NCBI GenBank assembly: GCA_023247725.1
Contig: JAHFFW010000006.1
Span: 11,210 to 75,209 of the forward strand
Direction of reading: 5' to 3'
DNA: 64,000 nt
Source of the DNA: Candidatus Omnitrophota bacterium
GTDB taxonomy: Bacteria > Omnitrophota > Gorgyraeia > Zapsychrales > JAHFFX01
Shown: positions 1 through 41,811 of the stretch, piece after piece
How positions within the stretch are numbered: the stretch's first letter is position 1
Layout of the letters: every line of letters begins with the position of its first letter
Notes under the pieces: model-generated
Told to the model about the DNA's origin: nothing
Database searches by the model: none
The model's input: the letters and a program-made list of their open reading frames with translations, nothing else
Translations under genes and position numbers: made by a program

Positions 1-1993
1 CATGCAATCGCCGGGCAAGATTGAGCGGGGTCTGTCCCCCAAACTGGACGATGAGTCCTTGCGGTCTTTCGACCTCGACGATGTTCATGACATCTTCGAA
101 CGTCAAGGGTTCGAAATACAGGCGATCGGAGGTATCATAATCCGTCGAGACAGTTTCCGGGTTGGAATTGACCATAATCGTTTCATATCCAAGCTCACGC
201 AAGGCAAACGCGGCGTGGCAGCAACAATAATCGAATTCAATTCCCTGACCGATACGGTTCGGGCCTCCGCCCAAGATCATAATTTTCTTACGCGGAGTCG
301 GGCTCTGACGATCCAGCCGTTCGTTGGTGATGAGGGCCTCATCCTCTGTTTCATACGTCGAATAATAATACGGCGTGTAAGCTTCAAATTCCGCCGCGCA
401 GGTATCGACGACTTTAAAAGTCGCATCAATCCCCAGTTCTTTGCGCAGCGCGGCCACGGTATCTTCTTTGGTCTTCATGATGACCGCCAGCTGAGCGTCG
501 CTAAATCCATACTCCTTTGCTTGCTGCAATAAATCCGGCGGAATATTTTTTTCATTCCGATACGCCTTCACCAATTCTTGTTCCAAATCAATGATCTGGG
601 CGATGTGACCGATGAACCAGGGATCAATGCGGCTCAACTGACAAATTTTTTCAATCGACCAACCCTTTTGCAGGGCATATTTGATATAAAAAATTCGCGA
701 GGCGTTGGGTTCTTTGAGCCGAAGCTCGATTTTTTCTTCGGGAATGGAATGAAAATCCTGTTTATTATCAAGACCCGTATGACCGATTTCCAAACCGCGC
801 AAGGCTTTTTGCAACGCCTCTTTGAATGTGCGGCCAATCGCCATAGTTTCTCCGACGGACTTCATCGATACGCCCAAAATATCTTTGGCCTCAGGGAATT
901 TTTCAAAGGTGAAGCGCGGGGCCTTCACCACACAGTAATCAATGGTCGGTTCAAAGGACGCCGGGGTTTCTTTGGTGATATCATTCTGAATTTCGTCGAG
1001 CGAATAACCCACCGCCAGTTTGGCAGCGAATTTGGCGATGGGAAAACCCGTGGCCTTGGAGGCCAGCGCCGAGGAGCGCGACACGCGCGGATTCATTTCA
1101 ATCACAACCATTCGTCCATTGGCGGGATTAACGGCAAACTGAATATTGCTTCCGCCGGTTTCGACGCCAATTTCACGGATGAGCGCGAGCGCTGCATTGC
1201 GCATGGCCTGATATTCTTTATCCGACAAGGTTTGAGCCGGAGCCACCGTGATGCTGTCCCCGGTATGCACGCCCATCGGATCAAGATTTTCAATCGAACA
1301 GACGATGACCACATTGTCCTTGTTGTCGCGCATGACCTCCAATTCGAATTCTTTCCAGCCTTCGATCGATTCCTCGACGAGGACTTCATGGATCAGGCTG
1401 CTTTCAATGCCTAGCGAGGAAATGCGTTCCAGATCTTCAACATTAGTGGCAATGCCGCCGCCGGTTCCGCCCAGAGTGTAACTGGGTCGGATGATGACCG
1501 GAAATCCAATTTTCTTCGCTTCTTGTCGCGCCTCTTCCACGCTATGGGCAAAGGAGCTGCGCGGGACATCGAGCCCGATCTTAAGAACGACGTTTTTAAA
1601 ACATTCCCGATCTTCCGCCTTCTTGATGACGTCATAGGTCGCGCCGATCATCTTGACATGATATTTTTCCAGAACCCCTCGCTCACAGAGCTGCATGGCG
1701 ATATTGAGCGCGGTCTGGCCGCCGAGCGTGGGTAAAATGGCGTCGGGCTGTTCTTTCTTGATAATCTGCTCGACAAATTCCGGCGTCAATGGCTCGATGT
1801 AGGTGTGGTCGGCGATTTCCGGATCGGTCATGATCGTCGCCGGATTGGAATTGACCAACACAATTTCAAAGCCTTCCTCCTTAAGCGCCTTGCAGGCCTG
1901 GGTCCCGGAATAATCGAATTCACAGGCCTGACCGATGACAATCGGCCCGCTTCCGATGAGGAGGATTTTTTTGATGTCGGTTCGTTTAGGCAT
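1..1993 (-). CDS. carB: Carbamoyl-phosphate synthase large subunit, N-terminal ~664 aa. The 3' end of the gene lies beyond the window start
   Basis: Reverse-complement translation from the ATG at 1991-1993 gives [33 protein letters not shown]..., the canonical CarB N-terminus with ATP-grasp motifs. It lies downstream of carA on the same strand. It is absent from the ORF track only because it is truncated by the window edge. Confidence 0.9.
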
Positions 1994-2133
1994 CGCTTAA
2001 CGTGGGACGTTGGACGTTCGCTCGCTAGGGCGAAAGACGCGGTTGATGTAATTCACAAAAAGATTCCACCTTTTTTTCCATCGTGGAAAGCATGGCAAAA
2101 ATATGCTCGTATTTTTCATCTAAATTGACTTCA

Positions 2134-2168
2134 CGGGGAATTTTCATCGTCGGGGGTTACAAATTACC
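2134..2168. repeat. Family-C 38-nt motif CGGGGAATTTTCATCGTCGGGGGTTACAAATTACC
   Basis: Near-identical copies at 5407-5445 and 14728-14766. Confidence 0.55.
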
Positions 2169-2238
2169 GCGACGATTCACGCTTCACGAAGGACGCCACG
2201 TCTTAGCACCTCGTATCTCGCGAAGCGTATCTCATCTT

Positions 2239-2304
2239 ACCGGTTATCCGGCAATCTGGTAATTCGGAAATGATGACCCGGGTATCCGGATTCCCATTTC
2301 CGAC
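2239..2304. repeat. Family-B ~65-nt repeat ACCGGTTATCCGGCAATCTGGTAAT...CCGGGTATCCGGATTCCCATTTCCGAC
   Basis: Copy at 14622-14718 shares GGTTATCCGGCAATCTGGT and CCGGRTATCMGGATTYCCMTTTCCG. Confidence 0.55.
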
Positions 2305-2349
2305 GTCCCACGTCCAAACGACCTTGCGCTCTAGCGAGGAGTGAACGTC

Positions 2350-3447
2350 CTACGTCCCACGTTTATGAAGCTCCATCATCTCAATAAACTGCCTAAACAA
2401 ATACTGCGCATCCTCAGGACCCGGCGCGCTTTCCGGATGGTATTGAATGGAGAACATCGGGAATTTCTTGTGCCGCAGGCCCTCGACGGTATGGTCATTG
2501 AGATTAACATGCGTAATTTCCACATCAGCCGAATTAAGGCTTTTGAGGTCCACACAAAATCCGTGATTCTGAGAAGTGATGCCGATGCGGTTGGCCGGCA
2601 TGTCGAGAACGGGATGGTTAGCCCCATGATGACCAAATTTCAATTTATAGGTCGAGCCGCCCAACGCCAATCCCAAAATCTGATGCCCTAGGCAAATGCC
2701 AAAGACCGGAACTTTGCCCAAGGCCTGCTGCACCGTCTCGATGACATACGTCACGACCGCGGGATCGCCTGGACCATTGGACAAAAATAATCCGTCGGGA
2801 TTAATGCTAAGAATTTCTTTTAAACTGGCCGTGGCCGGAAAGACATGAATTTCACAGCCTAGACTCGCGAGGATTCGGAGAATATTGAATTTAATACCGC
2901 AATCGATCGCAGCCACCCGAAAATGCATCGTTCCCTGCGCCGGCCAGACGTATTTCTCTTGGGTCGTGACGCTTTTGACCCAGTCATAACCGACCATATC
3001 CGGGACCGCCTTCATTTTTTCCGCCAGTGATTGCGGATCAAAATCTTCCGTCGAAATAAGACCCTTCATCGCGCCAAACAAACGCAAATGCCGGGTGAGG
3101 GCGCGGGTATCGACTCCCTCGACGGCCATAATCTTATTTTCGTTCAAATAGTCGATGAGGCTTTTGGTGGCGCGGAAATTAGAATGGTGACGACAAAATT
3201 CCTTGACGACAAAGGCCTTAACATGGATCTTTTTAGATTCGATATCTTCGGAATTGATGCCGTAATTCCCAATCAAGGGATAGGTCATGACCACGATTTG
3301 CCCGGCATAGGAAGGATCGGTGAGAACTTCTTGATAGCCGGACATGGAGGTATTAAAGACAACTTCTCCGGCGGTCTCACTGGTTGTCGCTAATGACTTT
3401 CCGATGAAGGATTTGCCATCTTGCAGATACAGAATCGCTTTTTTCAT
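2350..3447 (-). CDS. carA: Carbamoyl-phosphate synthase small subunit (glutamine amidotransferase)
   Basis: Full-length similarity to CarA: GICLGHQ GATase catalytic Cys, HPE motif near the C-terminus. The ORF track starts at a GTG (3456). ATG at 3447 gives the typical MKKAILYLQDG N-terminus. Confidence 0.9.
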   Translation of the reverse strand: MKKAILYLQDGKSFIGKSLATTSETAGEVVFNTSMSGYQEVLTDPSYAGQIVVMTYPLIGNYGINSEDIESKKIHVKAFVVKEFCRHHSNFRATKSLIDYLNENKIMAVEGVDTRALTRHLRLFGAMKGLISTEDFDPQSLAEKMKAVPDMVGYDWVKSVTTQEKYVWPAQGTMHFRVAAIDCGIKFNILRILASLGCEIHVFPATASLKEILSINPDGLFLSNGPGDPAVVTYVIETVQQALGKVPVFGICLGHQILGLALGGSTYKLKFGHHGANHPVLDMPANRIGITSQNHGFCVDLKSLNSADVEITHVNLNDHTVEGLRHKKFPMFSIQYHPESAPGPEDAQYLFRQFIEMMELHKRGT

Positions 3448-3543
3448 GTGAAGCACCTACGGAGGGCGTTAACCGTCAGGCAAAAAGAAGGGGATTTTAT
3501 AAAACCCAGGCGGTTAGGGAAGAAAAACTTCCAGGCCCCCAGC

Positions 3544-3571
3544 ACTATAACATTGGGCAATCTTTTGTCAA
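3544..3571 (-). promoter_or_regulatory. Sigma70-type promoter upstream of carA (-35 TTGACA, 16-nt spacer, -10 TATAGT on minus strand)
   Basis: Plus-strand TGTCAA at 3566-3571 and ACTATA at 3544-3549, about 90 nt upstream of the carA ATG. Confidence 0.4.
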
Positions 3572-3615
3572 GCCTTATCAAAGTGAAAATCTTCCCAATA
3601 TTCTATTTTTCAAAA

Positions 3616-3882
3616 CTAAATCCCTTTTTCAGCCACTGGTTTACCCTGGCCTGAGCGAATTCTTTCTTTTTCGGTTTTTCGGTCGGCGATTGTCAGCATG
3701 ATGATCATGGCGATAATCCAAATAAACATGAGGATCGTTGGAACAGCAAAAAAAACCGCCAGCGCCAGCATTTTGTCTTTTTTCAAGGCAAACAGTGTGC
3801 CCGCGATCCAACCCACGACCCCGACAATGATCAAACCTAGCATAATCTGATTGCTCATAGATTTTCTTTTAGGCAAACTCAA
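3616..3882 (-). CDS. Small hydrophobic membrane protein (88 aa), function unknown
   Basis: Two predicted TM helices. 4-nt overlap with the glpD stop suggests translational coupling. Confidence 0.4.
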   Translation of the reverse strand: MSLPKRKSMSNQIMLGLIIVGVVGWIAGTLFALKKDKMLALAVFFAVPTILMFIWIIAMIIMLTIADRKTEKERIRSGQGKPVAEKGI

Positions 3883-5393
3883 ACCACGCCTGTCTCATTT
3901 CTATTTTTTACGAATTCTTCTATGACCCGGCGACATTGGCCCGTCGGGCATTTTCGATATCCGAGTGAAAGTCGCCGCCAGATGATATCCTCGGCCTTTT
4001 GAGCCATTTCCACGTTCAAGGCATATACAATCTGCGCCTTAATTTCCATCCCACAGTCGCAAATCGATTCTTTGAGGTGGGAATCTTTTTGAATAAAGTC
4101 CAGAACGTTTCGATACCGGATCCCGTATCGATCCATTAAGGATTGAACCACGGCCGGGGAAAGACCGTAAGAATGAGCGACTTCGGCCGCTTGTTCCTTG
4201 ATGGGACCGCTCCCATACAAAGGGTAATCCATTTTTCTGGATAAAGGCTGTTTGAATATCTTCTCCAATGTCTCCAGCGCCATAACCCGATAGGTGGTGT
4301 ATTTCCCTCCGGCCAGGTAAACGATCCCGCCAAAACTTTCAAAGATGAGATGCTTCCGAGAAATCGCGGAAGGGTGCCCTTCTTCCCACACGAGGGGCCT
4401 TAACCCGGCAAAGGTGGTGATGATCTTGGCGCGCTCAAAATTGACATCCGGAAAAACCCGGGAGGATTCGCCAAGCAAGTATTCGATATCTTCCGACGAG
4501 GGCTTTACACTGTCCGGACTGGCGGAAAAATCAGTGTCGGTCGTTCCGATGAGGGAATGACCCATCCAAGGAATGATAAAAAAAACGCGGTTGTCCTGCC
4601 GGGATGGAATGAGTAATGCCCGTCGGGAAATCTGGCCTTCATAAACAATATGAACCCCTTTGGTCGTACGCACGCGCGGCCTGGCCTGAGGGTGTTCCAA
4701 AGTCAATAATTCATTGGTCCAGGGGCCAACCGCGCACACGATCTTCTTTGCCTTGATGAAAAATGTTTGGCCGCTCAGGGTATCCCGCGCCTTGACGCCC
4801 GTGGCCTTGCCATTCTCCTTGACAAAGCCGGTTGATTCGACATAGTTCGCGACGATAGCGCCTTGGGTCCGGGCACAAAGAATGTTTTCCAAAACCAACC
4901 GCGCATCATCCATCTGCGCGTCATAATAAATGACGCCGCCTTTTAATCCGGCCTTTTTTAATCCGGGTTCCAGCTGCAAGACCTCGTCGATCTTAAGGCT
5001 GCGATGCGGTCGAATCTTGTGGTTAAAACTCAAAAAGTCATATAAAAAAACGCCCAGCTTTAGCATCCATCCTGGACGGGCATCGTCTTCATAAATGGGA
5101 ATCAAAAATTCGAGAGGTTTAACCAAGTGCGGCGCACTTTTCAATTGGATGGAACGTTCACGCAGGGACTCGAAGACCAAATCGAATTCGCCGTGTTCCA
5201 GATAACGAATGCCGCCGTGGATGAGTTTGGTGGATTTGCTCGAGGTGCCGCTGCCAAAGTCATTTTTTTCAATAAGCGCAATCCTTTTGCCCATGCCCGC
5301 GGCCAAGTTCGCGATCGCGGCCCCATTGATCCCGCCGCCGATGATCAGAAGATCGAATGCGCCATTGTATAACGACGATATATCTCTTGGCAT
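3879..5393 (-). CDS. glpD: FAD-dependent glycerol-3-phosphate dehydrogenase
   Basis: N-terminal FAD fold DLLIIGGGINGAAIA. Length and overall similarity to GlpD/GlpA family. Adjacent to glpK. Confidence 0.85.
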   Translation of the reverse strand: MPRDISSLYNGAFDLLIIGGGINGAAIANLAAGMGKRIALIEKNDFGSGTSSKSTKLIHGGIRYLEHGEFDLVFESLRERSIQLKSAPHLVKPLEFLIPIYEDDARPGWMLKLGVFLYDFLSFNHKIRPHRSLKIDEVLQLEPGLKKAGLKGGVIYYDAQMDDARLVLENILCARTQGAIVANYVESTGFVKENGKATGVKARDTLSGQTFFIKAKKIVCAVGPWTNELLTLEHPQARPRVRTTKGVHIVYEGQISRRALLIPSRQDNRVFFIIPWMGHSLIGTTDTDFSASPDSVKPSSEDIEYLLGESSRVFPDVNFERAKIITTFAGLRPLVWEEGHPSAISRKHLIFESFGGIVYLAGGKYTTYRVMALETLEKIFKQPLSRKMDYPLYGSGPIKEQAAEVAHSYGLSPAVVQSLMDRYGIRYRNVLDFIQKDSHLKESICDCGMEIKAQIVYALNVEMAQKAEDIIWRRLSLGYRKCPTGQCRRVIEEFVKNRNETGVV

Positions 5394-5406
5394 AACAATC
5401 TGACTC

Positions 5407-5445
5407 CCCGGGGAGTTTTCATCGTCGGGGGCGACAAAACTTCCT
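5407..5445. repeat. Family-C motif CCCCGGGGAGTTTTCATCGTCGGGGGCGACAAAACTTCC in the glpK-glpD intercistronic gap
   Basis: Read directly. Ends 14 nt upstream of the glpD start. Confidence 0.55.
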
Positions 5446-5455
5446 CCTCAACAAT

Positions 5456-10454: not shown

Positions 10455-12977
10455 TTATTTTCTGAAAGAAGGTGAAGGTTCCATCGGTTTGGCAGCGGAA
10501 GACATCAGGGCCGCAGATTCAACCAGGCGAATGAATTCCGCTCGGTAGCCCTGAGGATCTTCACCGCGAGCAGCCCGGGCGCGCTGCAAAATCTGTTCGT
10601 AAGATGCATTGTGTCTGTAGGGTGATTCGCGCAGGAGCAAACCGAATTCTGCCACGCCAGAGGCAAATTGAAAATTGGCCGACGGGGCTCGAGACTTCGG
10701 ATCCTTGGCCTGAACCGCCCTGGTTATCAAATGACTTTGATTCTCATCCGGCTTTTTATAACGGAGCTTAATCGTGAGGAGTTCCTGGCTGTCGATGATT
10801 TTTACAGGCTGGGGCGTTTCGATTCGCTGGTATTTGAGCGGGTCAACACTGGCGAAATTTTCGGAAGAATGAGTATCGACGATTTCATACAACGCCGTCA
10901 CGCTGTGACCCGCGCCCATGTCTCCGGCGTCTTTCATGTCGTTATTAAAATCTTCTTTGGCTAAGCCACGGTCCTCAAACCCAAGCAAACGATAGGCCTT
11001 GACCTGGCCGGGGTTAAATTCAATCTGAATCTTGACGTCCTTGGCAATCGTTAACAACGTGCCGCCGAGTTGCTGGACAAAAACTTTCTGGCCTTCCAGG
11101 ATATTATCGATGTAACCATAATTGCCGTTGCCATGATCGGCGAGTTTTTCCATCTTGGAATCTTTGTAGTTCCCGGTCCCGAAACCCAGGACACTCAAAA
11201 AAATCCCTTCGTTGCGCTTCGATTCGATGAGATTGATCAACTCATCGTCACTACTGACCCCGACATTAAAATCTCCATCGGTCGCAAGAATAATCCGATT
11301 GTTACCGCCGGAAATAAAATGTTCCGCCGCTAAACGGTAGGCGAGCTTGATTCCCTCCCCGCCGGCAGTCGAGCCACCGGCATAAAGGGCATCGATCGCG
11401 GACAAAATCTTTTCCTTATCGCTGCCAGCCGTCGGCGGCAGGGCCACTCCGGCCGCGCCGGCATAGGTCACGATCGTAACACGATCACTGTCGCGCAGTT
11501 GATTCACTAAAAGTTTGAACGCAGATTTAAGCAGAGGCAATTTTTTGGTTTCATCCATAGAACCGGAGACATCAATAAGAAAAATGAGATTGGCTGGCGG
11601 CAAACGGTCCACGTCCACATTCTTTCCCTGCAGGCCGATGAGGACCAGATTGTGCTGGGGATTCCAGGGACAGGGCGCTACCTCTGTTGTGATCGTCAGG
11701 GGATCCTCCCCTTCGGGCTGAGGGTAATCGTAATGAAAATAATTAATCATCTCCTCGATGCGCACGGCATTCTTGGGCGGCAATTGCCCCGCAGAAATGA
11801 ACCGGCGGACATTGGTATAGGAAGCCGTGTCCACGTCGATCGAAAATGTCGATAAGGGATTACTGTTCGCTTCCAAAAAATTATTCTCCACGATCTGATC
11901 GTACTGTTCTGTATTGGCAGGATACGAAGGCACGGGATATCGGACTAAATCCGACGAGGGCGCAGGTGCAGGCGGGCAAGGCGCAATCACGCAGGAATAA
12001 ATCCTTCGCGATCGTGATAAGACATCTTGCGGCATGGCCTCACCTAACTCATTATTGTTTTGGGAGCCATCCTCGGTGGACATCGCTGATTTGGATTGTC
12101 TTTCCTCCAGTGCACCCATCCGATCAAATTCACCACCACTCGGCATCAAGCCTCCAGCAGGCATCGGCTGATCAGCTCTTAAATCGGCCCTTATTTCCTT
12201 GTAACCATGTTGCGGCAAGGGTTTCATTGATCGATCCCTGCGACCATTTTCCTCATCCGATGCCAGGGGTTGTTCCTGGTCCCTAGATTCTTGTTCCGGT
12301 GATACAAACGCCCGCTTATCCCTGGAGCCTCCTTGGCCGCTGGTTAAACCCTCAAAGGATTGGGAGGAAGATTTTTCTGCGACTTTCGCTAGCTCCATTC
12401 GACCCTCGGAAGGCAATATGGGAATCGGTTGGCTCGCCGGTGCGGAAGTTTCCACCGAAACCGTATCTTCGGTTTGCATCTTTTGTTTGGACGAAATCCC
12501 TTCCTTTTTATTTTCAGAAATTTTTGATTTCTCGCGCTCGGCGGCCTCATCGGCTTTTACAAAATTTTTGGAGGGCTCATGATGAAGAGGCTTAGTGCGG
12601 GCGGCCACCTGTATCCTCGTTTTATTCCGTGCCTGCAGGTTCCTTTGAGTCTGCCACTGGAGGAAGCCAAACACCGCCACTAAAAGAGCCAAAACACTGA
12701 CGCTTAACCCCATCGTGAACCACGGGCCTCGATGCAAGGGTCTCTGAGAAATTTTATCCTGTTCCCATTTCTTTTGAATCTTCTGCTCCAAATCCGGCGA
12801 AAGTTCCTCATCCGGCCACAACGTTAAGGTCGCAAAAATTTTTTTCAACTGGCGAAAATAACTCTGACAGGAAGAACAGGAAACCAGATGCTCTTCGACG
12901 ATTTTCTTTTCTTGAGGCGATACCTCTTGATCGCTATAGGCGCACAGCAATTGTCGTAAATTTTCATGATCAATCAT
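10455..12977 (-). CDS. Anti-sigma factor fused to a YfbK-like extracytoplasmic module: zf-HC2, one TM helix, a ~330-aa disordered linker, vWA, DUF3520
   Basis: N-terminus: CxxC...HxxxC zinc-finger anti-sigma motif (HLVSCSSCQSYF) and a TM helix (LSVSVLALLVAVFGFL). C-terminus: vWA MIDAS DVSGSMD...ATDGDFNVG and the YfbK-type tail. 8-nt overlap with the upstream ECF sigma gene. Confidence 0.75.
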   Translation of the reverse strand: MIDHENLRQLLCAYSDQEVSPQEKKIVEEHLVSCSSCQSYFRQLKKIFATLTLWPDEELSPDLEQKIQKKWEQDKISQRPLHRGPWFTMGLSVSVLALLVAVFGFLQWQTQRNLQARNKTRIQVAARTKPLHHEPSKNFVKADEAAEREKSKISENKKEGISSKQKMQTEDTVSVETSAPASQPIPILPSEGRMELAKVAEKSSSQSFEGLTSGQGGSRDKRAFVSPEQESRDQEQPLASDEENGRRDRSMKPLPQHGYKEIRADLRADQPMPAGGLMPSGGEFDRMGALEERQSKSAMSTEDGSQNNNELGEAMPQDVLSRSRRIYSCVIAPCPPAPAPSSDLVRYPVPSYPANTEQYDQIVENNFLEANSNPLSTFSIDVDTASYTNVRRFISAGQLPPKNAVRIEEMINYFHYDYPQPEGEDPLTITTEVAPCPWNPQHNLVLIGLQGKNVDVDRLPPANLIFLIDVSGSMDETKKLPLLKSAFKLLVNQLRDSDRVTIVTYAGAAGVALPPTAGSDKEKILSAIDALYAGGSTAGGEGIKLAYRLAAEHFISGGNNRIILATDGDFNVGVSSDDELINLIESKRNEGIFLSVLGFGTGNYKDSKMEKLADHGNGNYGYIDNILEGQKVFVQQLGGTLLTIAKDVKIQIEFNPGQVKAYRLLGFEDRGLAKEDFNNDMKDAGDMGAGHSVTALYEIVDTHSSENFASVDPLKYQRIETPQPVKIIDSQELLTIKLRYKKPDENQSHLITRAVQAKDPKSRAPSANFQFASGVAEFGLLLRESPYRHNASYEQILQRARAARGEDPQGYRAEFIRLVESAALMSSAAKPMEPSPSFRK

Positions 12978-13686: not shown

Positions 13687-14589
13687 TTAACTCAATTTCT
13701 TTATAGCGTCACGCAATTCTTCTGGCGTGGCGGATTCGTGGGATTCAATGACCTTGATGGCCGCCCGGCGGATGAAAGGCATAATCCGATCGAGATCGAA
13801 ATCTCCGGCAAAGGGGGCCAGATGATCTCTCAAGCCGCGGACTCCATGGATGTGCATTCCATACAAATGCCCGCTATACCGATTCAGATAATCGAGGTGT
13901 TTGGCCAGCCCCAGGCGTTCATTGACCTCGGCGTGTCCGTTGTCGTGCCAATAGACCAGACCCTGGGAAGCAAAACGCTGCAGGAAAAACTCCACCTCAT
14001 CGACATTCGGAATCTCGTGGGGATAATAGCGGGTTTCCAATCCGATCTTGATAGCTTTTTCTGCAGCGTAAGGAAGAATTTCTTTGAAACTTTCCTCGAT
14101 GGCCATGAGATAGGGTTCGGCTTTTTGTTTGCGCTTTTGGCGAAAATCTTCTCGCCAATGGATGAATTCCTCCGTCGCAGTCTTTCCTTCCTGATAAAGC
14201 TTGATGAGATTTCGTTCCGGTTCGCCCTCGAGCATAATGGTGCCCGCGTGAATGACCAGGACCTTGGCCCGGATACGGTCGGCGGTATCAATGGATTTCT
14301 TCGTCCAAAAAATTGCTTTTTCTCGTTCCTGTGGATCAAGGGCAGAAAGAAAATGCAGGTTAGAGACATGCCGGCCGGGTTGGCCGTCATCCGGACAAGG
14401 ACAATAATTATGGACACTCGAAACCTTTAAAGGAATTTTGGGGAGAAAGGACATCAGTTGTTCTAGGCGATCGGCGGGAAAATTGTAGCCCAGCTCAACG
14501 TACTCGAAACCCAGCTGCTTGATGTCATTCAAAAGCTGACGCGGATCGGTTTGCCGTTGGGAATTCCAGGCCGTGGAGAGTGATAACAT
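13687..14589 (-). CDS. Sugar phosphate isomerase/epimerase (xylose-isomerase-like TIM barrel)
   Basis: Family-level similarity (AP-endonuclease-2/TIM-barrel fold, conserved His/Glu/Asp pattern). 300 aa. Confidence 0.55.
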   Translation of the reverse strand: MLSLSTAWNSQRQTDPRQLLNDIKQLGFEYVELGYNFPADRLEQLMSFLPKIPLKVSSVHNYCPCPDDGQPGRHVSNLHFLSALDPQEREKAIFWTKKSIDTADRIRAKVLVIHAGTIMLEGEPERNLIKLYQEGKTATEEFIHWREDFRQKRKQKAEPYLMAIEESFKEILPYAAEKAIKIGLETRYYPHEIPNVDEVEFFLQRFASQGLVYWHDNGHAEVNERLGLAKHLDYLNRYSGHLYGMHIHGVRGLRDHLAPFAGDFDLDRIMPFIRRAAIKVIESHESATPEELRDAIKKLS

Positions 14590-14621
14590 ATTGAACTAAA
14601 ACGGCAAAATGAAAATAAATT

Positions 14622-14718
14622 ACAGGTTATCCGGCAATCTGGTCATCACCGAAATGCCGGCCCGGATATCAGGATTTCCCTTTCCGGATCTGCGGTTGAC
14701 CGGATTGCCGTTTGGTAA
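14622..14718. repeat. Family-B repeat copy
   Basis: ACAGGTTATCCGGCAATCTGGTCATCACCGAAATGCCGGCCCGGATATCAGGATTTCCCTTTCCGGATC... Confidence 0.55.
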
Positions 14719-14727
14719 CTCAATGAC

Positions 14728-14766
14728 TCCCGGGGAATTTTTGTCGTCGGGGTTCACAAAACTCCC
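14728..14766. repeat. Family-C motif CTCCCGGGGAATTTTTGTCGTCGGGGTTCACAAAACTCC
   Basis: Read directly. Adjacent to the family-B copy, as in the carA/carB element. Confidence 0.55.
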
Positions 14767-14773
14767 CGATCCC

Positions 14774-16193: not shown

Positions 16194-17642
16194 TTATATG
16201 GAAACCTTACTGGCTTGTGCCAATAAATATTGATGAACCCCCTCGGCGGCGGCGCGCCCTTCGGCTATGGCCCAGACCACGAGCGATTGGCCTCTGGCCA
16301 TATCTCCGGCGGCAAAGACCCCTGGAACCGAAGTCATTTTTGCAAGGTTCGTTTTGACATTGCCGCGGCCATCCAATTCCACACCGAGTTCTTCCAGCAA
16401 TCCCTTTTTGACCGGACCTGTAAAACCTAAAGCCAACAAAACCATATCGACATCGACGACAAAATCGGATTCCGGAATCCCTTGGAAAGACGACCGTCCG
16501 GTCATTGGATCTTTCGGAGCGTATTCCAGACGAACGGCGTGCAATTTTTTTAGCTTCCCATGCTCACCGCTGAATTTTTTGGTCAGGATGCCATAATCCT
16601 GCTCGACGCCCTCTTCGTGCGAGGTCGATTTTCTTTGAATGAACGCCCAGTTAGGCCAAGGATTATCCGCGGCTCTTTCTTTGGGAGGTTGGGGCAGAAG
16701 CTCATATTGTTTGACCCAGATGGCACCTTGGCGATTGGCAGTGCCTAAACAGTCAGAACCAGTATCTCCGCCTCCTAAAATAATAACCCCTTTTCCCTCG
16801 GCCGTCACGCTCAATTTGCGATCGATCGCCTGTCCTTGATTGCGTCGGTTCTGTTGAGGCAAATAGAACATCGCCTGATAAATTCCTTCGAGTTCCCGTC
16901 CAGGAATCGGTAAATCGCGCGGCTCTTCGGCCCCGCCGCACAAGACCAGCGCATCAAAATTTTTCTGCAATTCTTTTGCGGAGACATCGACGCCCACATT
17001 AACCTTATTTTTGAAGGCAACACCTTCAGCCTGCATGCGATTCAATCGTCGCTGTATCACCCATTTTTCCAATTTAAAATCCGGGATGCCCAGCCACAAC
17101 AATCCGCCGAAATATTCGTTCTTTTCGTAAACGGTGACCTTATGTCCGAGCTTATTGAGTTGATCGGCGCAGGCGAGCCCCGCCGGGCCAGAACCGATGA
17201 CCGCAGTTTTCTTGCCTGTGCGGATTTTCGGAGGCCTTGGCTTGATCCAATTGTTCTCATAGGCCTTTTCAATGATGGATAGTTCAATATTTTTGATCGT
17301 GACAGCGGGTTGATTGATACTCAGAACGCAGGAATTCTCACACGGGGCTGGACAAATACGGCCGGTAAACTCTGGAAAGTTGTTGGTCTTATGCAGCCTT
17401 TCGATGGCCTCTTGCCAACGGTCGTTGTAAACCAGATCGTTCCAATCCGGAATGATGTTGCCGATGGGACACCCGGATTGGCAAAAGGGAACCCCGCAAT
17501 CCATGCAGCGTCCGCCCTGGCGCCTCAATTCCTCGACGGGCATGGGCAGATAAAATTCTTTCCAATGTTTCAAACGCTGCGGGATTGGCTGTTTGGCGAA
17601 ATCCTTGCGTTCCCATTTCATGAATCCTTTGACGTCACCCAT
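16194..17642 (-). CDS. gltD: Glutamate synthase (NADPH) small subunit
   Basis: N-terminal Cys cluster CMDCGVPFCQSGCP, FAD/NAD Rossmann GSGPAGLACA. 482 aa. Confidence 0.9.
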   Translation of the reverse strand: MGDVKGFMKWERKDFAKQPIPQRLKHWKEFYLPMPVEELRRQGGRCMDCGVPFCQSGCPIGNIIPDWNDLVYNDRWQEAIERLHKTNNFPEFTGRICPAPCENSCVLSINQPAVTIKNIELSIIEKAYENNWIKPRPPKIRTGKKTAVIGSGPAGLACADQLNKLGHKVTVYEKNEYFGGLLWLGIPDFKLEKWVIQRRLNRMQAEGVAFKNKVNVGVDVSAKELQKNFDALVLCGGAEEPRDLPIPGRELEGIYQAMFYLPQQNRRNQGQAIDRKLSVTAEGKGVIILGGGDTGSDCLGTANRQGAIWVKQYELLPQPPKERAADNPWPNWAFIQRKSTSHEEGVEQDYGILTKKFSGEHGKLKKLHAVRLEYAPKDPMTGRSSFQGIPESDFVVDVDMVLLALGFTGPVKKGLLEELGVELDGRGNVKTNLAKMTSVPGVFAAGDMARGQSLVVWAIAEGRAAAEGVHQYLLAQASKVSI

Positions 17643-17694
17643 TCCCTAATCCATTTTTAAACACTGGCCTTTTAAACTTTCTTATCCCGCGAGC

Positions 17695-17910
17695 TCATCG
17701 TTTTATATGCTCCGTTAACGCCATCTCGACTTGAAGTTCTTTGCGTCCACCGAAGAGTTTTGCTGCATCGAGGGATTCAATGCCCACCGCTTTGCCCGAG
17801 GCATCATAATCAACAATAATGCCTTCGGCAATCTCATCACTTTCCTCAATTTTTGCTTTTCTTAATCGAAGATATAAAGCGTCGGCCTTGGGATCATAAC
17901 TCATTTTCAT
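17695..17910 (-). CDS. DUF2283-family small protein (71 aa)
   Basis: MKMSYDPKADALYLRL...GKAVGIE matches the DUF2283 consensus. This family is often antitoxin-like, and no partner is seen adjacent. Confidence 0.55.
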   Translation of the reverse strand: MKMSYDPKADALYLRLRKAKIEESDEIAEGIIVDYDASGKAVGIESLDAAKLFGGRKELQVEMALTEHIKR

Positions 17911-17948
17911 ATTTTATTCCTTCTCATAAATCATCTGCAAATCCCCCC

Positions 17949-18272
17949 TTAAATCCGCACACCCGTTACCAGCACTTCCTCAAGAAAACTTGCCGGAGTT
18001 GCCGACTTAATTTCCTTTTCTGTGTAGCCCTTCGCCTCAATTGGCCTCATGATTCTTGCCGCGGCCATCCCCAAAATTTCGAGTCTTTCTCTTAGATTCA
18101 ATTTCGCAAAATCGTTCGAGATGACGACCAAATCGATGTCGCTATCCCTTCTTGGATTTCCTTTTGTGAAGGATCCAAATAAAATTACGCGCTCTACATG
18201 AATACCCAAATCGAAAAGTACTTTTTTATATTCCCTAATTATTTCTTTAATCTTTTGTCTTGTTTTAGACAT
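17949..18272 (-). CDS. Minimal nucleotidyltransferase (MNT), HEPN/MNT toxin-antitoxin component
   Basis: GSFTKGNPRRDSDIDLVV = canonical GS...DxD polymerase-beta-like NT motif. 107 aa. Confidence 0.7.
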   Translation of the reverse strand: MSKTRQKIKEIIREYKKVLFDLGIHVERVILFGSFTKGNPRRDSDIDLVVISNDFAKLNLRERLEILGMAAARIMRPIEAKGYTEKEIKSATPASFLEEVLVTGVRI

Positions 18273-18631
18273 TGAATGATCTCCTGTGTTTTGTCTAAAT
18301 ATTTTCCAGCAATTATCTTTGGATAACTTGAAACTAACTTTGACAAATCTTCCGGATATCTGGTCACAATACTGACGTTATTGATCATACCCAGAAAATC
18401 TAACAACTCTTTGGATAATTGGATTTTTCCTTGATCTAATAAGTAAATTAGGTCGTGGGTTTTAGGTGGGATTTTCTTAGTCTCGGCAGAAACAAAGGCT
18501 TTTAAAAGTTTTTCCAGGGCCAAATGACACATGAATATGACATACACATACCGCCCTGTTTTCAACATTCGGTCGGCGGTCGTTAAATCATATTCCACCA
18601 TCGCCAACCAGTTTTTTATTTCCTTGTTCAC
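18239..18631 (-). CDS. HEPN domain protein, partner of the MNT
   Basis: HEPN (PF05168-like) helices NWLAMVEYDL...CHLALEKLLKAF. Overlaps the MNT gene by ~34 nt. GTG start with AAAGGT 7 nt upstream, 3 nt after the gltB stop. Confidence 0.65.
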   Translation of the reverse strand: MNKEIKNWLAMVEYDLTTADRMLKTGRYVYVIFMCHLALEKLLKAFVSAETKKIPPKTHDLIYLLDQGKIQLSKELLDFLGMINNVSIVTRYPEDLSKLVSSYPKIIAGKYLDKTQEIIQCLKQDKRLKK

Positions 18632-26557: not shown

Positions 26558-27259
26558 TTATTCAATCTTTTCCATCATCAACTTCTCAAAATTCCGATAA
26601 ACCGTCTTTGCCTGACGATTAAAAATATCCTTTTTCTGATCATACGTCTCCAGCATTTGCTTGGCCTTATTTTGTTTTTCCCTATCGTTACTTTTGAAAT
26701 ACGACCGGCACCAACTCTCGATCATCCCCCGGGTGATTTCGACATGAAATTGAAGGCCATAGGCATTGCCTCCGACTTTAAAGGCCTGGTTCGGACACGC
26801 CGGTGCGGTCGCAAGCCGTTCTCCTTGGCCAGGAATGCTAAACATATCCTCGTGCCAATGATAGACCTCCATGGTTTTATCGAGGCCAGCAAACAAAGGA
26901 TCGGATTTCTCGATGAAAACTTTAAACCACCCGACTTCTTTCATCGGGGATTTAACGACGGGGGCCTGACAGGCCTTCGCTAACAATTGCGCCCCCAAAC
27001 AGATTCCTAAATAAGGGATTTTTTCTTTTAAAACGTTCTGAATAAAAATATTTTCTGCTTTGAGCCAAGGATATTGATCTTCTTCATACACATTCATGGG
27101 GCCCCCCATGACAATCACGGCTGCAACATTGGATAATTCCGACACAAGGGCTTCGCCACGGCCAAGATCAATATGCTTCGGCTTATAGGCGCGTTCCTGA
27201 AAATATTCTCCCAGAGTTCCGGGGCCTTCGATATCGATGTGTTTGAGGATAAGAATCAT
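26558..27259 (-). CDS. Class I glutamine amidotransferase-like protein (GATase1)
   Basis: GICLGAQLL nucleophile elbow, HWHED...QFHVE His/Glu region. ATG at 27259 is preferred over the GTG at 27289. Confidence 0.7.
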   Translation of the reverse strand: MILILKHIDIEGPGTLGEYFQERAYKPKHIDLGRGEALVSELSNVAAVIVMGGPMNVYEEDQYPWLKAENIFIQNVLKEKIPYLGICLGAQLLAKACQAPVVKSPMKEVGWFKVFIEKSDPLFAGLDKTMEVYHWHEDMFSIPGQGERLATAPACPNQAFKVGGNAYGLQFHVEITRGMIESWCRSYFKSNDREKQNKAKQMLETYDQKKDIFNRQAKTVYRNFEKLMMEKIE

Positions 27260-27446
27260 ATCGCTTATGGCGTATATTGCACCCGCCACGGAAATTGATC
27301 AGCTATCACAAATATCTTCTCACAATATTTTAGCGCAAGATCCCATATTTCCAAGGTCTCAAATCTGAACATCGTCTTCTCCCATTTTTTCAACGGTCAT
27401 ACGCATAAGCCATACGCTATATGTCATAAAAAGCCGAGGTCCTAAG

Positions 27447-34664: not shown

Positions 34665-36881
34665 TCAATCATGCGGCAAGCGGGTGACATTGGCGGCGCA
34701 ATACTTATACGAGGGCTGCCGTGAATAGGGATCAAACGCGGCAAAGGTCAAACGGTTGGTTTCCGGATAGTGCATGGGCATAAACAGCTCTCCCGGCTTT
34801 ACCGTCGGAGTCACAACGGCTTTTGCCTTGACCATTCCTCTGAGACTTGAGACATGGACCCACTGCCCTGGTTCAATTTTAAGCCGGCCGGCATCTTGAG
34901 GATTGATTTCAACGTAGGCTTCTTTCGGATAGAGCTTGCGCAGCACGGCCGATTTTCCGGTGCGGGTCTGGGTATGCCACTGGACCGACGTCCCGCGGCC
35001 GGTTAAAAGGACAAAGGGATAAAATTTGTCGGGCGGCTCCGGGACCGACCGGATGTCTTCAAAGAGGAATCTGGCTTTGCCGTCGGGATGATAAAATTTT
35101 CCATCTGCAAACAATCGGCGTTCACTATTTTGATGCAGGTTGAGGGCTTCGGCGGTCATCGACTCTGGAAACGGCCATTGGATTCCGCCAGATTCTTCGA
35201 TCATCTGATAATCCCTGATTCCACTGATATCGGCCGGCGTTTGCCTTGAAATTTTTTTGAGAATTTGAAACACGGCCTCGGGTGAAGACCAATCGGTGAA
35301 CATCTCGGCGCAGCCCCAGTATTGCGCAATCAATTTGAAAATATAAAAATCTGCAAGGGCGACTCCCGGGGCCGCGGCCACTTTTCGAAAAAGCCCCAGG
35401 CGTCGTTCGGAATTGATCACGGTCCCTTCTTTTTCTCCCCAGCCCGCCGCCGGCAAAACCAGATCGGCCAATTGCGCCATTTCTGTCGTCGCATACATAT
35501 CTTGCACGACGAGGAAATCCAACTGGCTGATGACTTCCCGGAAATCGTGCTGATTGATCCAGGAATGAGCCGGGTTCGTGGCAATGACCCAGAGCCCTTT
35601 GATCTTGTGGACGGGGATTTGTTCCAAGATTTGATCGTAGGACAGGCTGTTCTGGGCGGGAATACAGTCGGGATTGATCTTAAGGATTTCCGCAATCTTG
35701 TGTCGGTGTTCAGGATTAAGAAAATCATAGCCGCCCAGAAGGCTGGTGGTATTGCTGAAAAGCCGCGAACCCATGGCATTGCACTGGCCGGTGATGGAAT
35801 TGGCCCCGGTTCCCGGCCGGCCGATGTTGCCGGTTAAAAGCGCCAGATTAATAATGGCCTGGGCCAGGCGCACGCCTTCATGACTTTGATTGACACCCAT
35901 GGTCCACCAGAACGATACCCGTTGACCGCAATGAATCAGGTCAGCCAATTCCTCAATTTCTTTGATCGCCAAACCTGTGGCGGCGCTCACCAATTCCAGC
36001 GGAAACTGGCGAACATGGTCGGTAAATTCGGAAAAGCCATTCGTGTGCCGCTCGACAAAAATCTGGTTGATCCATCCGTTGGCGATAAAAATACGGGCCA
36101 ATCCATAAAACAGCGAGAGATCCGATTTAGGCGCGACGGTATAGTGATGCGTGGCCGCCATGGCTGTTTCTGTTTTCCGCGGATCAATCACGACGATTTT
36201 GGGGTGATGGCGGTTCATGAGAACCCGCTGCCACATGATGGGATGCGCGATGCAGGGATTCGCGCCAACAAAAACCAAAACATCGGATTCTTCGAAATCT
36301 TTGTAGGTAAATGGCGGGGCATCGAATCCAAAGGATTGCTTATAAGCGACGGCGGCGGTGGCCATACATTGACGCGTATTGGCGTCACCGTGCACCATTC
36401 CCATGCCGAATTTAGCCAACGCGCCCAAGAGCGCCATTTCTTCCGTGCAGAATTGTCCCGTACTTAAAAAAGCAACCCTCTCGGCCCCGTATTTGCGTTG
36501 GATGTCTTTAAATCTTCCGACGAAGATTTTGAGTGCGGTATCCCAATCGACGGCTACCAATTTTCCAAAACGATCTTTGAGCAAAGGGGTTTTGGCACGA
36601 TCGGGAGCCGTGAGCGGCGTGAGCGCCTCCCAGCCTTTGGGGCAGGCCTCGCCCAGATTCACCGGATGATGACGGTTCGGCGTCAAATTGACAGCTTCAC
36701 GGTTGCGCAGGTGCACGGTCAGACTGCAGCCCGTCGAGCAATAACCGCAGATGAGATTGACCGCCGCCTGTGGCATGAGCCTTTTAGGCAACTGGCCCAA
36801 TCCTAACACCGAAGGTTCCAATATCAGCTCTTGAGTCAGATCGCCGTTGGTTTTGTAAAAAATATCGCGGAGTTTATCCAT
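34665..36881 (-). CDS. Assimilatory nitrate reductase catalytic subunit, NarB/NasA-type molybdopterin oxidoreductase, cytoplasmic (no Tat signal)
   Basis: N-terminal 4Fe-4S motif [10 protein letters not shown], Mo-bisMGD domains, 738 aa, C-terminal tail typical of assimilatory enzymes. Nitrogen-assimilation context. Confidence 0.75.
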
Positions 36882-36888
36882 ATTTTGT

Positions 36889-37010
36889 TCCGAGGGACGA
36901 TCGACGACCGCTCGGCCAATAGTACGGTGGTCTCGCTAGGATGAAGGACGAGAAAATGTCTTCGTCCCTCGTCCTAGCGAACGAAGTGAGCGGTCATCCT
37001 TCATCCCTCT
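36889..37010. repeat. GGGACG-core self-complementary repeat (AGGATGARGGACGA type) filling the narB / FeS-NrfD intercistronic gap
   Basis: Nested inverted repeats GACCGCTC...GAGCGGTC and GCTAGGA-TGAA-GGACGAG...CTCGTCC-TAGC. A related copy lies at 56511-56625. Confidence 0.6.
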
Positions 37011-38633
37011 TTATAAAACGTCTTTCTCCAAGCCACCACCTGGCATCTTGAGCGGAACGACCGCCCGGAAAAAAAGAAACCTTTCCAAAGATTCCCCGAT
37101 CAAAGAGAAACCTAAGATCGCTGCAACCAAAGCCCACGGGACTTCGGTCGTCGAAGAATTCAATTTTGCCGCCAACACCAAGGGCAAAATGACACCACCG
37201 AGCAATCCAAGAATAAAACGGGCATTCGTCACCCGGCGCAGAGGTCGGCTCATTAAAAAGGCCGTCTTCTTGAGCGCCGTCCATTCTTTTTCCCGTAAAT
37301 GCCGCAAAAAAATTCCCTCGGTGAGCAATTTGCCTAACACCAACGCGGCCATCAACCGACAGACGAAAATTTCCCCAACCTTCGATGATCCGCCAAAAAA
37401 TAAAAACGCCGGAAGGATCGCCGCCAATCCCAAAATCCCCGTCGTCAAAAAGAATTTCACCATCGTCTGCGGATGGTCCCAAAAAGGCCGCCGCGTGACT
37501 TTATAAACCATGATCGAACACCCAATCCCGAATAGTCCTAAAATCGCCGTTATGATCGCCAAGATTTGATTCGTCAAACCTCCCTCATGTTTCCAGGAAG
37601 CCAAAGCATAAAATGCCGTCAAAATAGCAAAAAGACCAAAAGCGATGATTTCACGGCTGAGCCACGAATGCCTTAAACCCAAAACCGCCCGAAACGCCAA
37701 GTGCGGCCGACCCAAATGAAAGATACTGACCGCCATCGCCAAGATTCCGGCGCAAAGCGCCACCAGGGCTTGTACGGCTGGTGCTAACGGATGCGAAATG
37801 ATATCCGAATAGCGGTTCAAAAATAGACCTCCCGCAAATGCCCCGACGGATAACTGAGTCAAGACCAGCATGGCCACCAACGGCCAATGGCAGTGCTCGG
37901 GCTGGAGCGTATAGGAATCGACGGCCATTGTGCCGGAAGGAAATTTCTTTTGCGTCTCGTAGCGGGTTGTCGGTAACGTATAATGCGAATCCGGCGCGTC
38001 GGGGATATTGACAAAATCCGTCGGATGTTCGTAAACGGCGGCGGTCTCAACCAGCGTGATGCGAATCGCACCGTTGGGACAGGCGCGGGCGCAGGCCGGA
38101 GCCTCGCCGACATTTAAACGGCTGATGCACATGTCGCATTTGTGCACAATGCCTTTCTTTCTGTTGTACTTGGGAACATCGTAAGCACAAGTGAAGGTGC
38201 AGTACTGGCACCCGATGCATTGGTCCTCGAGATGCCGGACGACACCACTGTCTTTCTCTTTGACGTACGCATCAACCGGACAACCATTAAGGCATGCCGG
38301 GTCCAGGCAATGATGACAGGCACTCGTCACGTGCTGGATCACCGAATCGCCGTTACGCCCTCCATATAACAATCCGACCGTACGCCAGGTTTCATCTTCG
38401 GGCAATCCGTTTTCATTGTGGCAGGCGGTCACACAGGCCTTGCAGCCGGTGCAGCGATCGAGATCGACGCTAAAGGCGTATTGCTGACCCGGGCCGGGCG
38501 CGCTTTTGGGGATGAGCTCTTCATAAAAATTCATTGCCGGAATCTGTTTTAAGTCGTGCTTCATGGCAAATGCTTCAACGGCAGTCAATTCCTGCTGTTG
38601 TTGCAAATAGGTTTCAATGAGATCTGGAGACAC
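37011..38633 (-). CDS. Fusion protein: 4x[4Fe-4S] ferredoxin domain (DmsB/PsrB/NrfC-like) + NrfD/PsrC-type polytopic membrane quinol-interaction domain, with a ~60-aa unique N-terminal extension
   Basis: Four Cys clusters (CTGCKACVTAC, CHHCLDPAC, CIGCQYCTFTC, CDMCISRL...CARACP), then ~8 TM helices of NrfD type. No signal or Tat motif. GTG start at ~38633 with AAAGGAGA SD 6 nt upstream. The ORF-track TTG at 38687 is not preferred. Confidence 0.7.
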   Translation of the reverse strand: MSPDLIETYLQQQQELTAVEAFAMKHDLKQIPAMNFYEELIPKSAPGPGQQYAFSVDLDRCTGCKACVTACHNENGLPEDETWRTVGLLYGGRNGDSVIQHVTSACHHCLDPACLNGCPVDAYVKEKDSGVVRHLEDQCIGCQYCTFTCAYDVPKYNRKKGIVHKCDMCISRLNVGEAPACARACPNGAIRITLVETAAVYEHPTDFVNIPDAPDSHYTLPTTRYETQKKFPSGTMAVDSYTLQPEHCHWPLVAMLVLTQLSVGAFAGGLFLNRYSDIISHPLAPAVQALVALCAGILAMAVSIFHLGRPHLAFRAVLGLRHSWLSREIIAFGLFAILTAFYALASWKHEGGLTNQILAIITAILGLFGIGCSIMVYKVTRRPFWDHPQTMVKFFLTTGILGLAAILPAFLFFGGSSKVGEIFVCRLMAALVLGKLLTEGIFLRHLREKEWTALKKTAFLMSRPLRRVTNARFILGLLGGVILPLVLAAKLNSSTTEVPWALVAAILGFSLIGESLERFLFFRAVVPLKMPGGGLEKDVL

Positions 38634-41784: not shown

Positions 41785-41811
41785 ATTAGCCTCCTCAATC
41801 AATTTCCCTTG

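Follow-up and report, generated by a model that had tools for sequence, protein, structure and literature searches.

The carA-carB junction

The DNA considered here, the window, is a stretch of 64,000 nt from a Candidatus Omnitrophota genome, and the copy counts and gene scans given below cover these 64 kb. Within it, a 369-bp non-coding fold-back repeat termed el1 (1997-2365, - strand) lies at the junction of carA and carB, where it is marked by a long inverted repeat, by its fold, and by its absence from the same junction in relatives. Related repeats built from GGGACG heptads are referred to as family A, of which el2 (57766-57972) is a second member, and two other repeat modules are called B and C. 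Nearly all genes in the window are on the - strand, including carA (2350-3447) and the 5' part of carB (1-1993, ATG at 1993-1991), which continues past the left window edge. The carA product, whose best matches are proteins of Omnitrophota metagenome-assembled genomes, has 365 residues and is full length against its relatives. It ends ...MMELHKRGT followed by TAG (2352-2350), and after ...HK the final RGT and the stop codon read into el1.

A σ70-like promoter, TTGACA-16-TATAGT with a TG extension, is present upstream of carA (3544-3571, - strand) and is the sole promoter-like site in the region from 1800 to 3700. Between carA and carB there is neither a promoter-like site nor a convincing terminator-like site, and no Shine-Dalgarno sequence precedes the carB start. 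Because the single promoter lies upstream of carA and none is found within el1, the element is expected to be part of the carAB mRNA. Upstream of carA, the strong promoter is conserved together with a leader some 95 nt long in three genomes: the window (3448-3571, - strand), L001 (GCA_964372915.1; 9860-10000), and L004 (GCA_023247755.1; 4191-4397). L001 is the closest relative for which DNA is available, and its carA, like that of L004, is 82% identical to the carA of the window. The conserved leader, which gave no Rfam match, may be a regulatory one.

The el1 palindrome

A sequence-only reading of this DNA had reported perfect 12-nt terminal inverted repeats. These are real (1999-2010 and 2352-2363), and they are the tips of a longer, 25-nt repeat (1999-2023 and 2339-2363) in which 23 of 25 positions are complementary (92%); with TTAA counted, the repeat spans 27 nt. 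When the 373-nt segment was shuffled 200 times with its dinucleotides preserved, a match of 23/25 was never reached, the best shuffle giving 18. The TTAA noted at the left end is indeed present (1997-2000), but it does not lie just outside the element. Its context recurs in el2 as TTAACGTGGGAC. TTAA is also complementary, apart from one mismatch, to the far end (the sequences there are ACGTTTA and ACGTTAT). It thus forms the outer tip of the repeat itself rather than a flanking target.

Each arm is an array of heptads. The mRNA-5' arm (2331-2363, - strand; AACGTGGGACGTAGGACGTTCACTCCTCGCTAG) consists of tandem GGGACGT/AGGACGT units and contains the last codons of carA and the TAG at 2350-2352, while the mRNA-3' arm (1999-2028, - strand; CTAGCGAGCGAACGTCCAACGTCCCACGTT) ends 5 nt before the carB ATG. 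Tandem Repeats Finder (TRF) identifies period-7 arrays of ACGTAGG, GGACGTC, and AACGTCC in el1.

RNA folding, which had been proposed as a check, gives a very stable structure for the sense strand (-156.6 kcal/mol, z = -8.4); shuffled sequences average -108 kcal/mol as RNA, and 0 of 100 fold as well. As DNA, the element also folds better than any of 100 shuffles (z = -7.5). In the predicted sense-RNA fold, pairing extends to about 43 bp, with outer-stem helices of 12, 8, 8, 3, 4, 3, and 5 bp. The positions of stop, stem, and start were taken from the dot-bracket of this predicted fold. The carA stop is U15-A16-G17, at a one-base bulge after the first 12 bp, and on the 3' arm the last paired base is 5 nt from the carB AUG, with the preceding 21 nt (-6 to -26) within the stem.

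Insertion of el1 and the carA tail

The proposal that el1 has inserted between normally adjacent genes is borne out by comparison of the junction, which was inspected in 75 loci. The carA-carB gap is 356 nt in the window, while relatives range from an overlap to 70 nt: -17 in L006, 0 in L008, 3 nt in L001, 10 in L009, 22 in L007, 68 in L004, and 70 in L005. Junctions empty of any insert are seen in L001, L006, and L008. In L001, carA ends ...KYGT-TAA, followed by ACA and then the carB ATG, and the 3' junction of el1, TAA-GCG-ATG, mirrors this TAA-ACA-ATG. The simplest reading of the two sequences is that TAA-GCG-ATG represents the old carA stop, spacer, and carB start. El1 would then have landed directly upstream of that stop, in a junction that was once TAA-NNN-ATG.

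The insertion also changed the protein. The last codons of carA, CGT-GGG-ACG-TAG, come from el1 and specify R-G-T plus the stop. An overlap of the right-hand repeat with the end of carA had been described before and stands; the order of residues in the protein, however, is K-R-G-T, since the earlier order followed the + strand. In the 120 closest CarA proteins, ...MME.HK is followed by short tails that vary (KK, NA, NAQTR, and others), and the KRGT tail is confined to the window protein (P0001) and one other, P0005; relatives without the repeat also lack the tail. P0005 is not the sister of the window protein, with 79% identity compared to 80-82% for P0002-P0004. Its contig (ERZ27301951) carries carA, a 42-nt gap, a gene for a 130-residue four-helix-bundle protein (PF05635/PF22296), a 58-nt gap, and carB. 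Because KRGT occurs only in two non-sister proteins, both with an insertion after carA, el1 is taken to donate the carA tail, in agreement with the earlier suggestion that the C-terminus had been remodelled. El1 thereby accounts for both the odd C-terminus of CarA and the 356 nt that separate the genes of an otherwise compact operon.

Family A

Family A comprises four elements in the window and one in L004. A second copy at 57766-57972 had been described as sharing both the ends and the inner block of el1. This copy, el2 (- strand), exists, but it is degenerate, and its likeness to el1 is at the ends only, with 84% across 31 nt and 81% across 68 nt. It lies between a gene for a peptidoglycan-binding-domain protein and sucC, upstream of sucC. 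The blocks common to el1 and el2 are the 68-nt 5' block, which includes the non-heptad sequence CACTCCTCGCTA...GTCGTTTGGACG, and the 3' end, GTCCCACGTTAA-NNN-ATG. Two further members had been overlooked. One (56526-56625, - strand; GAGGGACGAAGGACG / CCTACGTCCCTCGTCC / GTCGTCCCTCATCC) is located between sucC and sucD. The other (36886-37010, - strand) is a nested hairpin of -71.4 kcal/mol (z = -9.3) between a gene for an Fe-S/DmsC-like subunit and a molybdopterin oxidoreductase gene. These two have TTCCG..GAYGACCGCTC in common.

In all four window copies, a density of 4 per 64 kb, the mRNA-5' side is made of GGGAYG-N-AGGAYG-N units and the 3' side of their complement. They are all found between co-directional genes, and three of them separate the subunit genes of one enzyme (carA/carB, sucC/sucD, and the Fe-S/molybdopterin subunits). 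The L004 member is a perfect 24-bp hairpin, ACGTTGGACGTTGGCTCCGCCAAC-AAA-GTTGGCGGAGCCAACGTCCAACGT (beginning ACGTTGGACGTTGGCTCC), situated between purF and pyrG, genes that directly adjoin each other in L001 (TAA-ATG), while those of L006 overlap. Its arm is identical to the 3' arm of el1 at 16 of 17 positions. In all five members, the G-rich arm is on the mRNA-5' side.

The sequence-only reading had named grounds on which its interpretation would have to be given up, namely only two copies with no target-site duplication or insertion polymorphism, and the same carA tail in relatives without the repeat. What is found is more than two copies, an insertion polymorphism, and no KRGT where the repeat is absent.

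Outside this small set, family A has not turned up. The tandem-heptad motif has 23 matches in the window, all within the four elements, and about 13 in 1.37 Mb of other loci. A profile of nine family A arms, run over 1.43 Mb, matches only in the window and L004. The pattern CTCCTCGCTA-N(5-15)-GTCGTTTGGAC has no match in public genome contigs or metagenome contigs. The four metagenome matches to GTCGTTTGGACGNGGGACGT are all due to chance and lie inside genes of organisms of 51-58% G+C, and the match to AACGTGGGACGTNGGACGT in viral contigs is a simple tandem repeat, (ACGTGGG)7, from a contig of a giant virus. A blastn search of plasmids gave no match, nor did protein look-ups with the window CarA and GGDEF protein. 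No population variants were recovered: searches with sucC and glpD returned contigs that are 100% identical to the window over the shared part and that do not span el1. Identical contigs are present in the sequencing runs SRR14366766 and SRR14366760. As far as these sequences allow it to be seen, family A appears confined to a small clade.

The interior of el1

Between its arms, el1 contains one module C and one module B, as had been noted, and by its sequence the loop appears to have become a mosaic in which these two unrelated modules are combined with an inner hairpin of heptads and a core rich in A+T. All the parts are listed here in mRNA order on the - strand. Next to the 5' arm is a second heptad block in direct orientation (GTCGTTTGGACGTGGGACGTCGG, 2298-2329), which is common to el2 (copy at 57900-57931). 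Module C (2237-2302) follows, with a match at 14620-14686 and a partial match at 48381-48440. The inner hairpin (2174-2233) is made of CGTGAAG/CGTGAAT heptads and resembles the hairpin of the 68-nt carA-carB spacer of L004, with 70% identity over 44 nt and an exact 12-mer, CGTGAATCGTCG. Module B (2126-2172) matches 5401-5447, in the glpK/glpD gap, and 14724-14769. Finally, the unique A+T-rich core (2029-2125) contains no promoter-like site, terminator-like site, or protein-family match.

Modules B and C are independent units, because their order is reversed at 14.6-14.8 kb and each also occurs alone. The stand-alone copies are all between co-directional genes: glpK/glpD, an unknown gene and a xylose-isomerase-like TIM-barrel gene, and nqrE/nqrF (48381-48440).

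Neither a structured RNA of a recognized family nor a gene is apparent in the interior. The label of structured-RNA module, offered earlier as one possibility, finds no backing in Rfam, which has no match in the whole window; at a permissive threshold the el1 region gives only chance-level hits (E at least 2.5). Modules B and C were ruled out as conserved RNA hairpins, because their copies lack a common predicted fold. An open reading frame (ORF) of 40 codons in el1 and one of 55 codons in el2 both end at a TAA three bases before the downstream ATG. These were rejected as genes because they have no ribosome-binding site and their shared ...TS(N/D)VPR* is the translated 3' arm. No reading frame of el1 has a Pfam match.

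Predicted effect on the carAB mRNA

When transcribed as part of the carAB mRNA, el1 would form a terminal stem of about 43 bp, and this stem would bury the 21 nt upstream of the carB AUG, which lacks a Shine-Dalgarno sequence. A ribosome finishing carA at the UAG would open approximately the first 20 bp, freeing the carB start region, while the remaining inner stem would keep the carA stop and the carB start physically close. Translational coupling could thereby survive the 356-nt insertion. In addition, a duplex of about 43 bp would be a plausible substrate for RNase III, and a cut would separate the two cistrons and differentially stabilise them. Judged from the modelled fold, the effect of el1 would likely be on the carAB mRNA, either through masking and coupling of carB initiation or through processing by RNase III. 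How a very stable 370-nt structure can remain harmless between the subunit genes of an essential enzyme, when the second gene has no separate start signal, is a question that the locus raises.

In five of six family A members, the sense RNA is more stable than the antisense RNA. In el1, sense is ahead by 13 kcal/mol (15 versus 8 G-U pairs). This bias, together with the upstream position of the G-rich arm in all five members, lends weak support to a constraint at the RNA level in family A. Over the whole class of heptad fold-backs described below, sense and antisense are favored in 9 and 8 cases, respectively, so there is no strand bias. CsrA-type GGA sites in the arms were also considered, and were dropped because other heptad families lack GGA.

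Nature and spread of el1

Together, the arms, the dispersed copies, and the empty junctions are best read as follows, with a probability of roughly 0.55: el1 is one copy of a lineage-specific, dispersed family of palindromic repeats whose arms are arrays of tandem 7-nt units (GGGACGN at the 5' side and the complement at the 3' side). [quoted passage not shown] As in REP/BIME, imperfect palindromes occupy extragenic, transcribed gaps and are combined with other motifs. The copies lack target duplications and all point the same way, which suggests a route based on a single strand or a hairpin and disfavours cut-and-paste by a DDE transposase. The family could have spread, for example, by means of a REP-associated tyrosine transposase (RAYT), or by template switching.

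Several observations count against this view of a dispersed repeat that acts in the mRNA. No two family A members form a near-identical pair, leaving recent mobility unsupported, and neither a transposase nor a RAYT is present among the 46 window ORFs scanned against Pfam. Given its likeness to the L004 spacer, the inner hairpin may mean that part of the interior is older, ancestral spacer. With nearly all genes on one strand, orientation to transcription is inseparable from orientation to replication. The arms of el2 pair poorly and have decayed (fold z = -1.9), which would not be expected if the stem were required for function, and since the whole class shows no sense bias (9 versus 8), selection at the RNA level is not general. 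The steps of translational coupling and RNase III processing are inferred from a model of the fold.

The sequence-only reading called the element MITE-like as one of two possibilities. A classical MITE would be a deletion derivative of an insertion sequence (IS), moved in trans by a DDE transposase that recognises the terminal inverted repeats (TIRs). A review (PMC3184786) gives as the defining traits of MITEs their TIRs, a transposase-free core, duplicated target sites, and an RNA that forms a long stem-loop. El1 fits this definition in its TIRs of 25-27 nt, its transposase-less core, and its long stem-loop, and its small size (369 bp), its want of an acceptable ORF, its dispersed copies, and its insertion polymorphism are also those of a MITE. 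It is the target duplication that fails. With several definitions of the ends tried, no duplication is consistent across the copies (three junction pairs: el1, el2, and the L004 hairpin). TAA/TAA flanks result for el1 when its ends are placed at ACGT...ACGT, but that choice is arbitrary, and it implies an ancestral carA without a stop codon; el2 is flanked by ATA/TAA and the L004 hairpin by GA/AT. Furthermore, TTAA is part of the repeat, all copies have a single orientation, and the arms are tandem arrays in which the number of units varies, in contrast to the ends of a typical IS. An IS with AACGTGGGACGT ends was not seen in the 64-kb window or in pattern scans of public contigs, and no transposase or related IS is within reach. 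A classical MITE is thus an unlikely identity for el1.

Equally unlikely is a cis-regulatory RNA that evolved largely in place at carA/carB, controlling the subunit ratio or coupling or providing a processing site, with the other copies as similar solutions. In its favor, all four copies in the window are between co-directional genes, three of them at subunit junctions; heptad hairpins of unrelated sequence occur at the carA/carB junction in many lineages; and the inner hairpin of el1 resembles the L004 spacer. A period-7 array is found at the junction after carA in 11 of 70 loci versus 44 of 776 other junctions, yet this enrichment is just about threefold and comes from crude ORF calls. Against such an origin, many close relatives have 0-3 nt or an overlap between the two genes, el2 is decayed, and the class lacks a sense-strand bias. 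Moreover, the same sequence family is present at non-homologous junctions, so dispersal is required anyway.

The P0005 junction invites another explanation, in which el1 is a degenerate, ORF-less cassette similar to the intervening sequences (IVSs) of rRNA, here in an mRNA operon, whose long stem formerly surrounded a four-helix-bundle gene of PF05635 ('S23p'/bAvd-like). The P0005 carA also ends KRGT, a PF05635/PF22296 gene follows it, and the gaps on either side of that gene fit two arms of the size found in el1; however, the P0005 arms are deduced from just four shared residues. The Coxiella IVS, a 428-nt selfish element, has such an S23p-type ORF (PMC4990558). A truncated PF05635 gene does exist in the window (27286-27372), but el1 itself holds no trace of one. 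A profile of 120 family members gives E = 18 and there is no Pfam match, so a decayed four-helix-bundle gene inside el1 was rejected. The other family A members lack an ORF as well. This origin is accordingly rated as less probable again than the two just described.

As an observation of its own, the PF05635 remnant (27286-27372, - strand) is a 29-residue N-terminal piece (E = 1e-6 against the 120-member profile) that leads straight into a gene for a class-I glutamine amidotransferase (26558-27289) at its GTG start, and a weakly heptad-like sequence, GCGTATGGCTTATGCGTATGACCG, is found just upstream.

Finally, the heptads on both strands might be DNA sites for a nucleoid or regulatory protein, as a simple stem would not need tandem periodicity and IHF/HU binding has been suggested for paired sites of Geobacter metallireducens (PMC2700814), but that suggestion is a guess, the elements fill stop-to-start gaps in operons rather than promoter regions, and the unit sequence varies from genome to genome, all of which makes this explanation very improbable.

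Comparison with known repeat systems

REP/BIME sequences of enterobacteria and pseudomonads, including the REPINs, are thought to act on mRNA stability. Like them, the elements described here are imperfect palindromes of short length, occupy transcribed gaps that separate co-directional genes, form mosaics with small motifs, lack target duplications, and are lineage-specific in sequence (overview in PMC3184786). Unlike in REP/BIME, the arms here are tandem arrays of 7-nt units and can lie 315 nt apart. REP/BIME sequences number in the hundreds per genome and have a cognate RAYT flanked by the repeats; the 64-kb window has four copies and no RAYT among its scanned ORFs.

Transcripts of the Correia elements of Neisseria are cleaved by RNase III. 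Correia elements and other bacterial MITEs, such as ERIC and RUP, resemble el1 in measuring 100-400 bp, in having terminal inverted repeats and no ORF, and in forming a long RNA stem that is co-transcribed with its neighbours and can alter gene ends (PMC3184786). They differ in having TA or other target duplications and a fixed TIR consensus, whereas the arms of el1 are repeat arrays. Specifically, a Correia element has a 26-bp TIR consensus and a TA duplication; el1, from an Omnitrophota bacterium, has arms of the form AACGTGGGACGT... and no TA duplication. Pneumococcal BOX elements (boxA, n copies of boxB, and boxC; 67-637 bp; transcribed) likewise are modular, with complementary terminal modules and variable inner ones (PMC3184786). 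They have no sequence relation to el1, however, and modules B and C of el1 are also found alone at other junctions.

With the IVSs of 23S rRNA (Coxiella and Leptospira), el1 shares a long terminal stem around a few hundred bases and a place in a transcribed, essential RNA, and at the carA/carB junction of one relative (P0005) there is an ORF of the S23p type that such IVSs carry. In contrast to these IVSs, which sit in helix 25 or 45 of 23S rRNA and are excised by RNase III, el1 is in an mRNA between protein genes, the window contains no rRNA, and there is no PF05635 ORF in el1.

A matching architecture is known from G. metallireducens, where multi-copy intergenic sites are paired on opposite strands, each with 3-5 tandem units of 7-9 nt and with variable spacing between them (Aklujkar et al. 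2009; PMC2700814). Binding of IHF/HU was guessed there, and the function is stated to be unknown. El1 has the same arrangement of opposite-strand, tandem short-unit arrays. The units themselves differ (GTTGCTYN, TCTCCGTS, and MTYCTGA), the organism belongs to another phylum, and the paper mentions no link with stop or start codons.

Heptanucleotides are the commonest long simple repeats in bacteria (Mrazek et al., as quoted in PMC4679880). In Beggiatoaceae, direct arrays of the heptamer TAACTGA lie just upstream of starts that have no ribosome-binding site, with one indirect repeat among 170 sets (MacGregor, PMC4679880). El1 resembles these arrays and the short tandemly repeated repetitive (STRR) sequences of cyanobacteria in having tandem 7-nt units in non-coding gaps, often within a few nt of a start without a canonical ribosome-binding site. 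Those arrays are almost all direct, while el1 pairs a direct array with its inverted complement and so folds back.

Heptad fold-backs at other gene junctions

Hairpins whose arms are tandem 7-nt arrays, unrelated in sequence to family A, are present in the carA/carB gap in several phyla. In Omnitrophota, L095 has three GTCACAA units inside the carA codons for WVTSHNVT and five TTGTGAC units ending 15 nt before carB; L023 has CTAAACN (nine units) paired with NGTTTAG (eight units); and L058 has GAAACCA in the carA tail and CTGGTNT, plus a second, nested pair of arms. Further carA-carB heptad hairpins are found in L004 and L005 (Omnitrophota), in L080, L048, L046, L011, L019, and L012 (Desulfobacterota), and in L073 (Planctomycetota). 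In L095, L080, L048, L058 (three copies), L023, L019, and L046, the last codons of the upstream gene lie inside the heptad array, and the next ATG follows 9-30 nt after the end of the inverted array. TRF detects 34 cases in which period-7 arrays form an inverted pair, spread over 16 of about 75 loci (the el1 locus and 15 others).

L058, from an Omnitrophota groundwater metagenome-assembled genome, has three copies of a family of its own (ACCAGNN / CTGGTNN) within 17 kb, at 1335-1511, 5222-5359, and 11208-11501. Two of these have nested second heptad arms, each 3' array is followed by an ATG after 9-30 nt, and one copy enters the upstream ORF. The window contains a fifth heptad fold-back, of another family (AAATCCA AAATCCA ... 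TTTGGTG ATTTGAA; 38688-38766, - strand), between an alginate-export-like porin gene and the Fe-S/DmsC subunit gene, the predicted start of which it reaches. L001 has an unrelated intergenic repeat family of its own (...GAAGTTCTCCTTCGCTAAAGCTTYGGAGAAATCTC...), at 14366-14557 and 17570-18037, after carB and after pyrG. Each genome of this clade seems to carry private repeat families.

Two other CarA tails, ...SRFRGNDEQL of P0105 and ...WVTSHNVTLARQ of P0016, resemble translated repeat arrays. For P0016, this is confirmed in the DNA (GTCACAA heptads, L095 1290-1475). Short variable tails such as KRGT, WVTSHNVT, and SRFRGNDE can thus be translated repeat arrays, and may mislead in annotation.

The recurrence of these structures suggests a general, unstudied class of repeats. 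Paired tandem-heptad arrays are seen at junctions in many uncultured phyla, where previously there was only a passing mention in one Geobacter genome paper, and no analysis of paired heptad arrays that fill stop-to-start gaps was found in the literature searched. A much broader proposition, tentative and rather doubtful as a whole, is that heptad fold-backs are a widespread and essentially undescribed class of operon-junction elements acting in mRNA, with a range that covers Omnitrophota, Desulfobacterota, Planctomycetota, Methylomirabilota, and further phyla. If so, they would settle exactly between a stop and the next start, often donating the stop; carA/carB would be a preferred site; and some would contain a four-helix-bundle ORF. 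The stem would either hold stop and start together, for coupling or ribosome transfer, or be excised by RNase III. If this were true, the ORF-bearing heptad fold-backs would be the mRNA counterpart of the rRNA intervening sequences.

Other loci in the window

A cluster of the nitrate/nitrite assimilation type occupies 34665-46468 and includes genes for a molybdopterin oxidoreductase, the Fe-S/DmsC subunit, a porin, a major facilitator superfamily transporter, and a NirB-like reductase; it is adjoined by a gene for a GAF-GAF-ANTAR regulator (45101-46468). Between gltB and gltD, at 17700-18631 (- strand), there is a pair of genes for a HEPN protein (18239-18631) and a nucleotidyltransferase (17949-18272), along with a small DUF2283-like ORF. 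L001 has the same small genes in this position.

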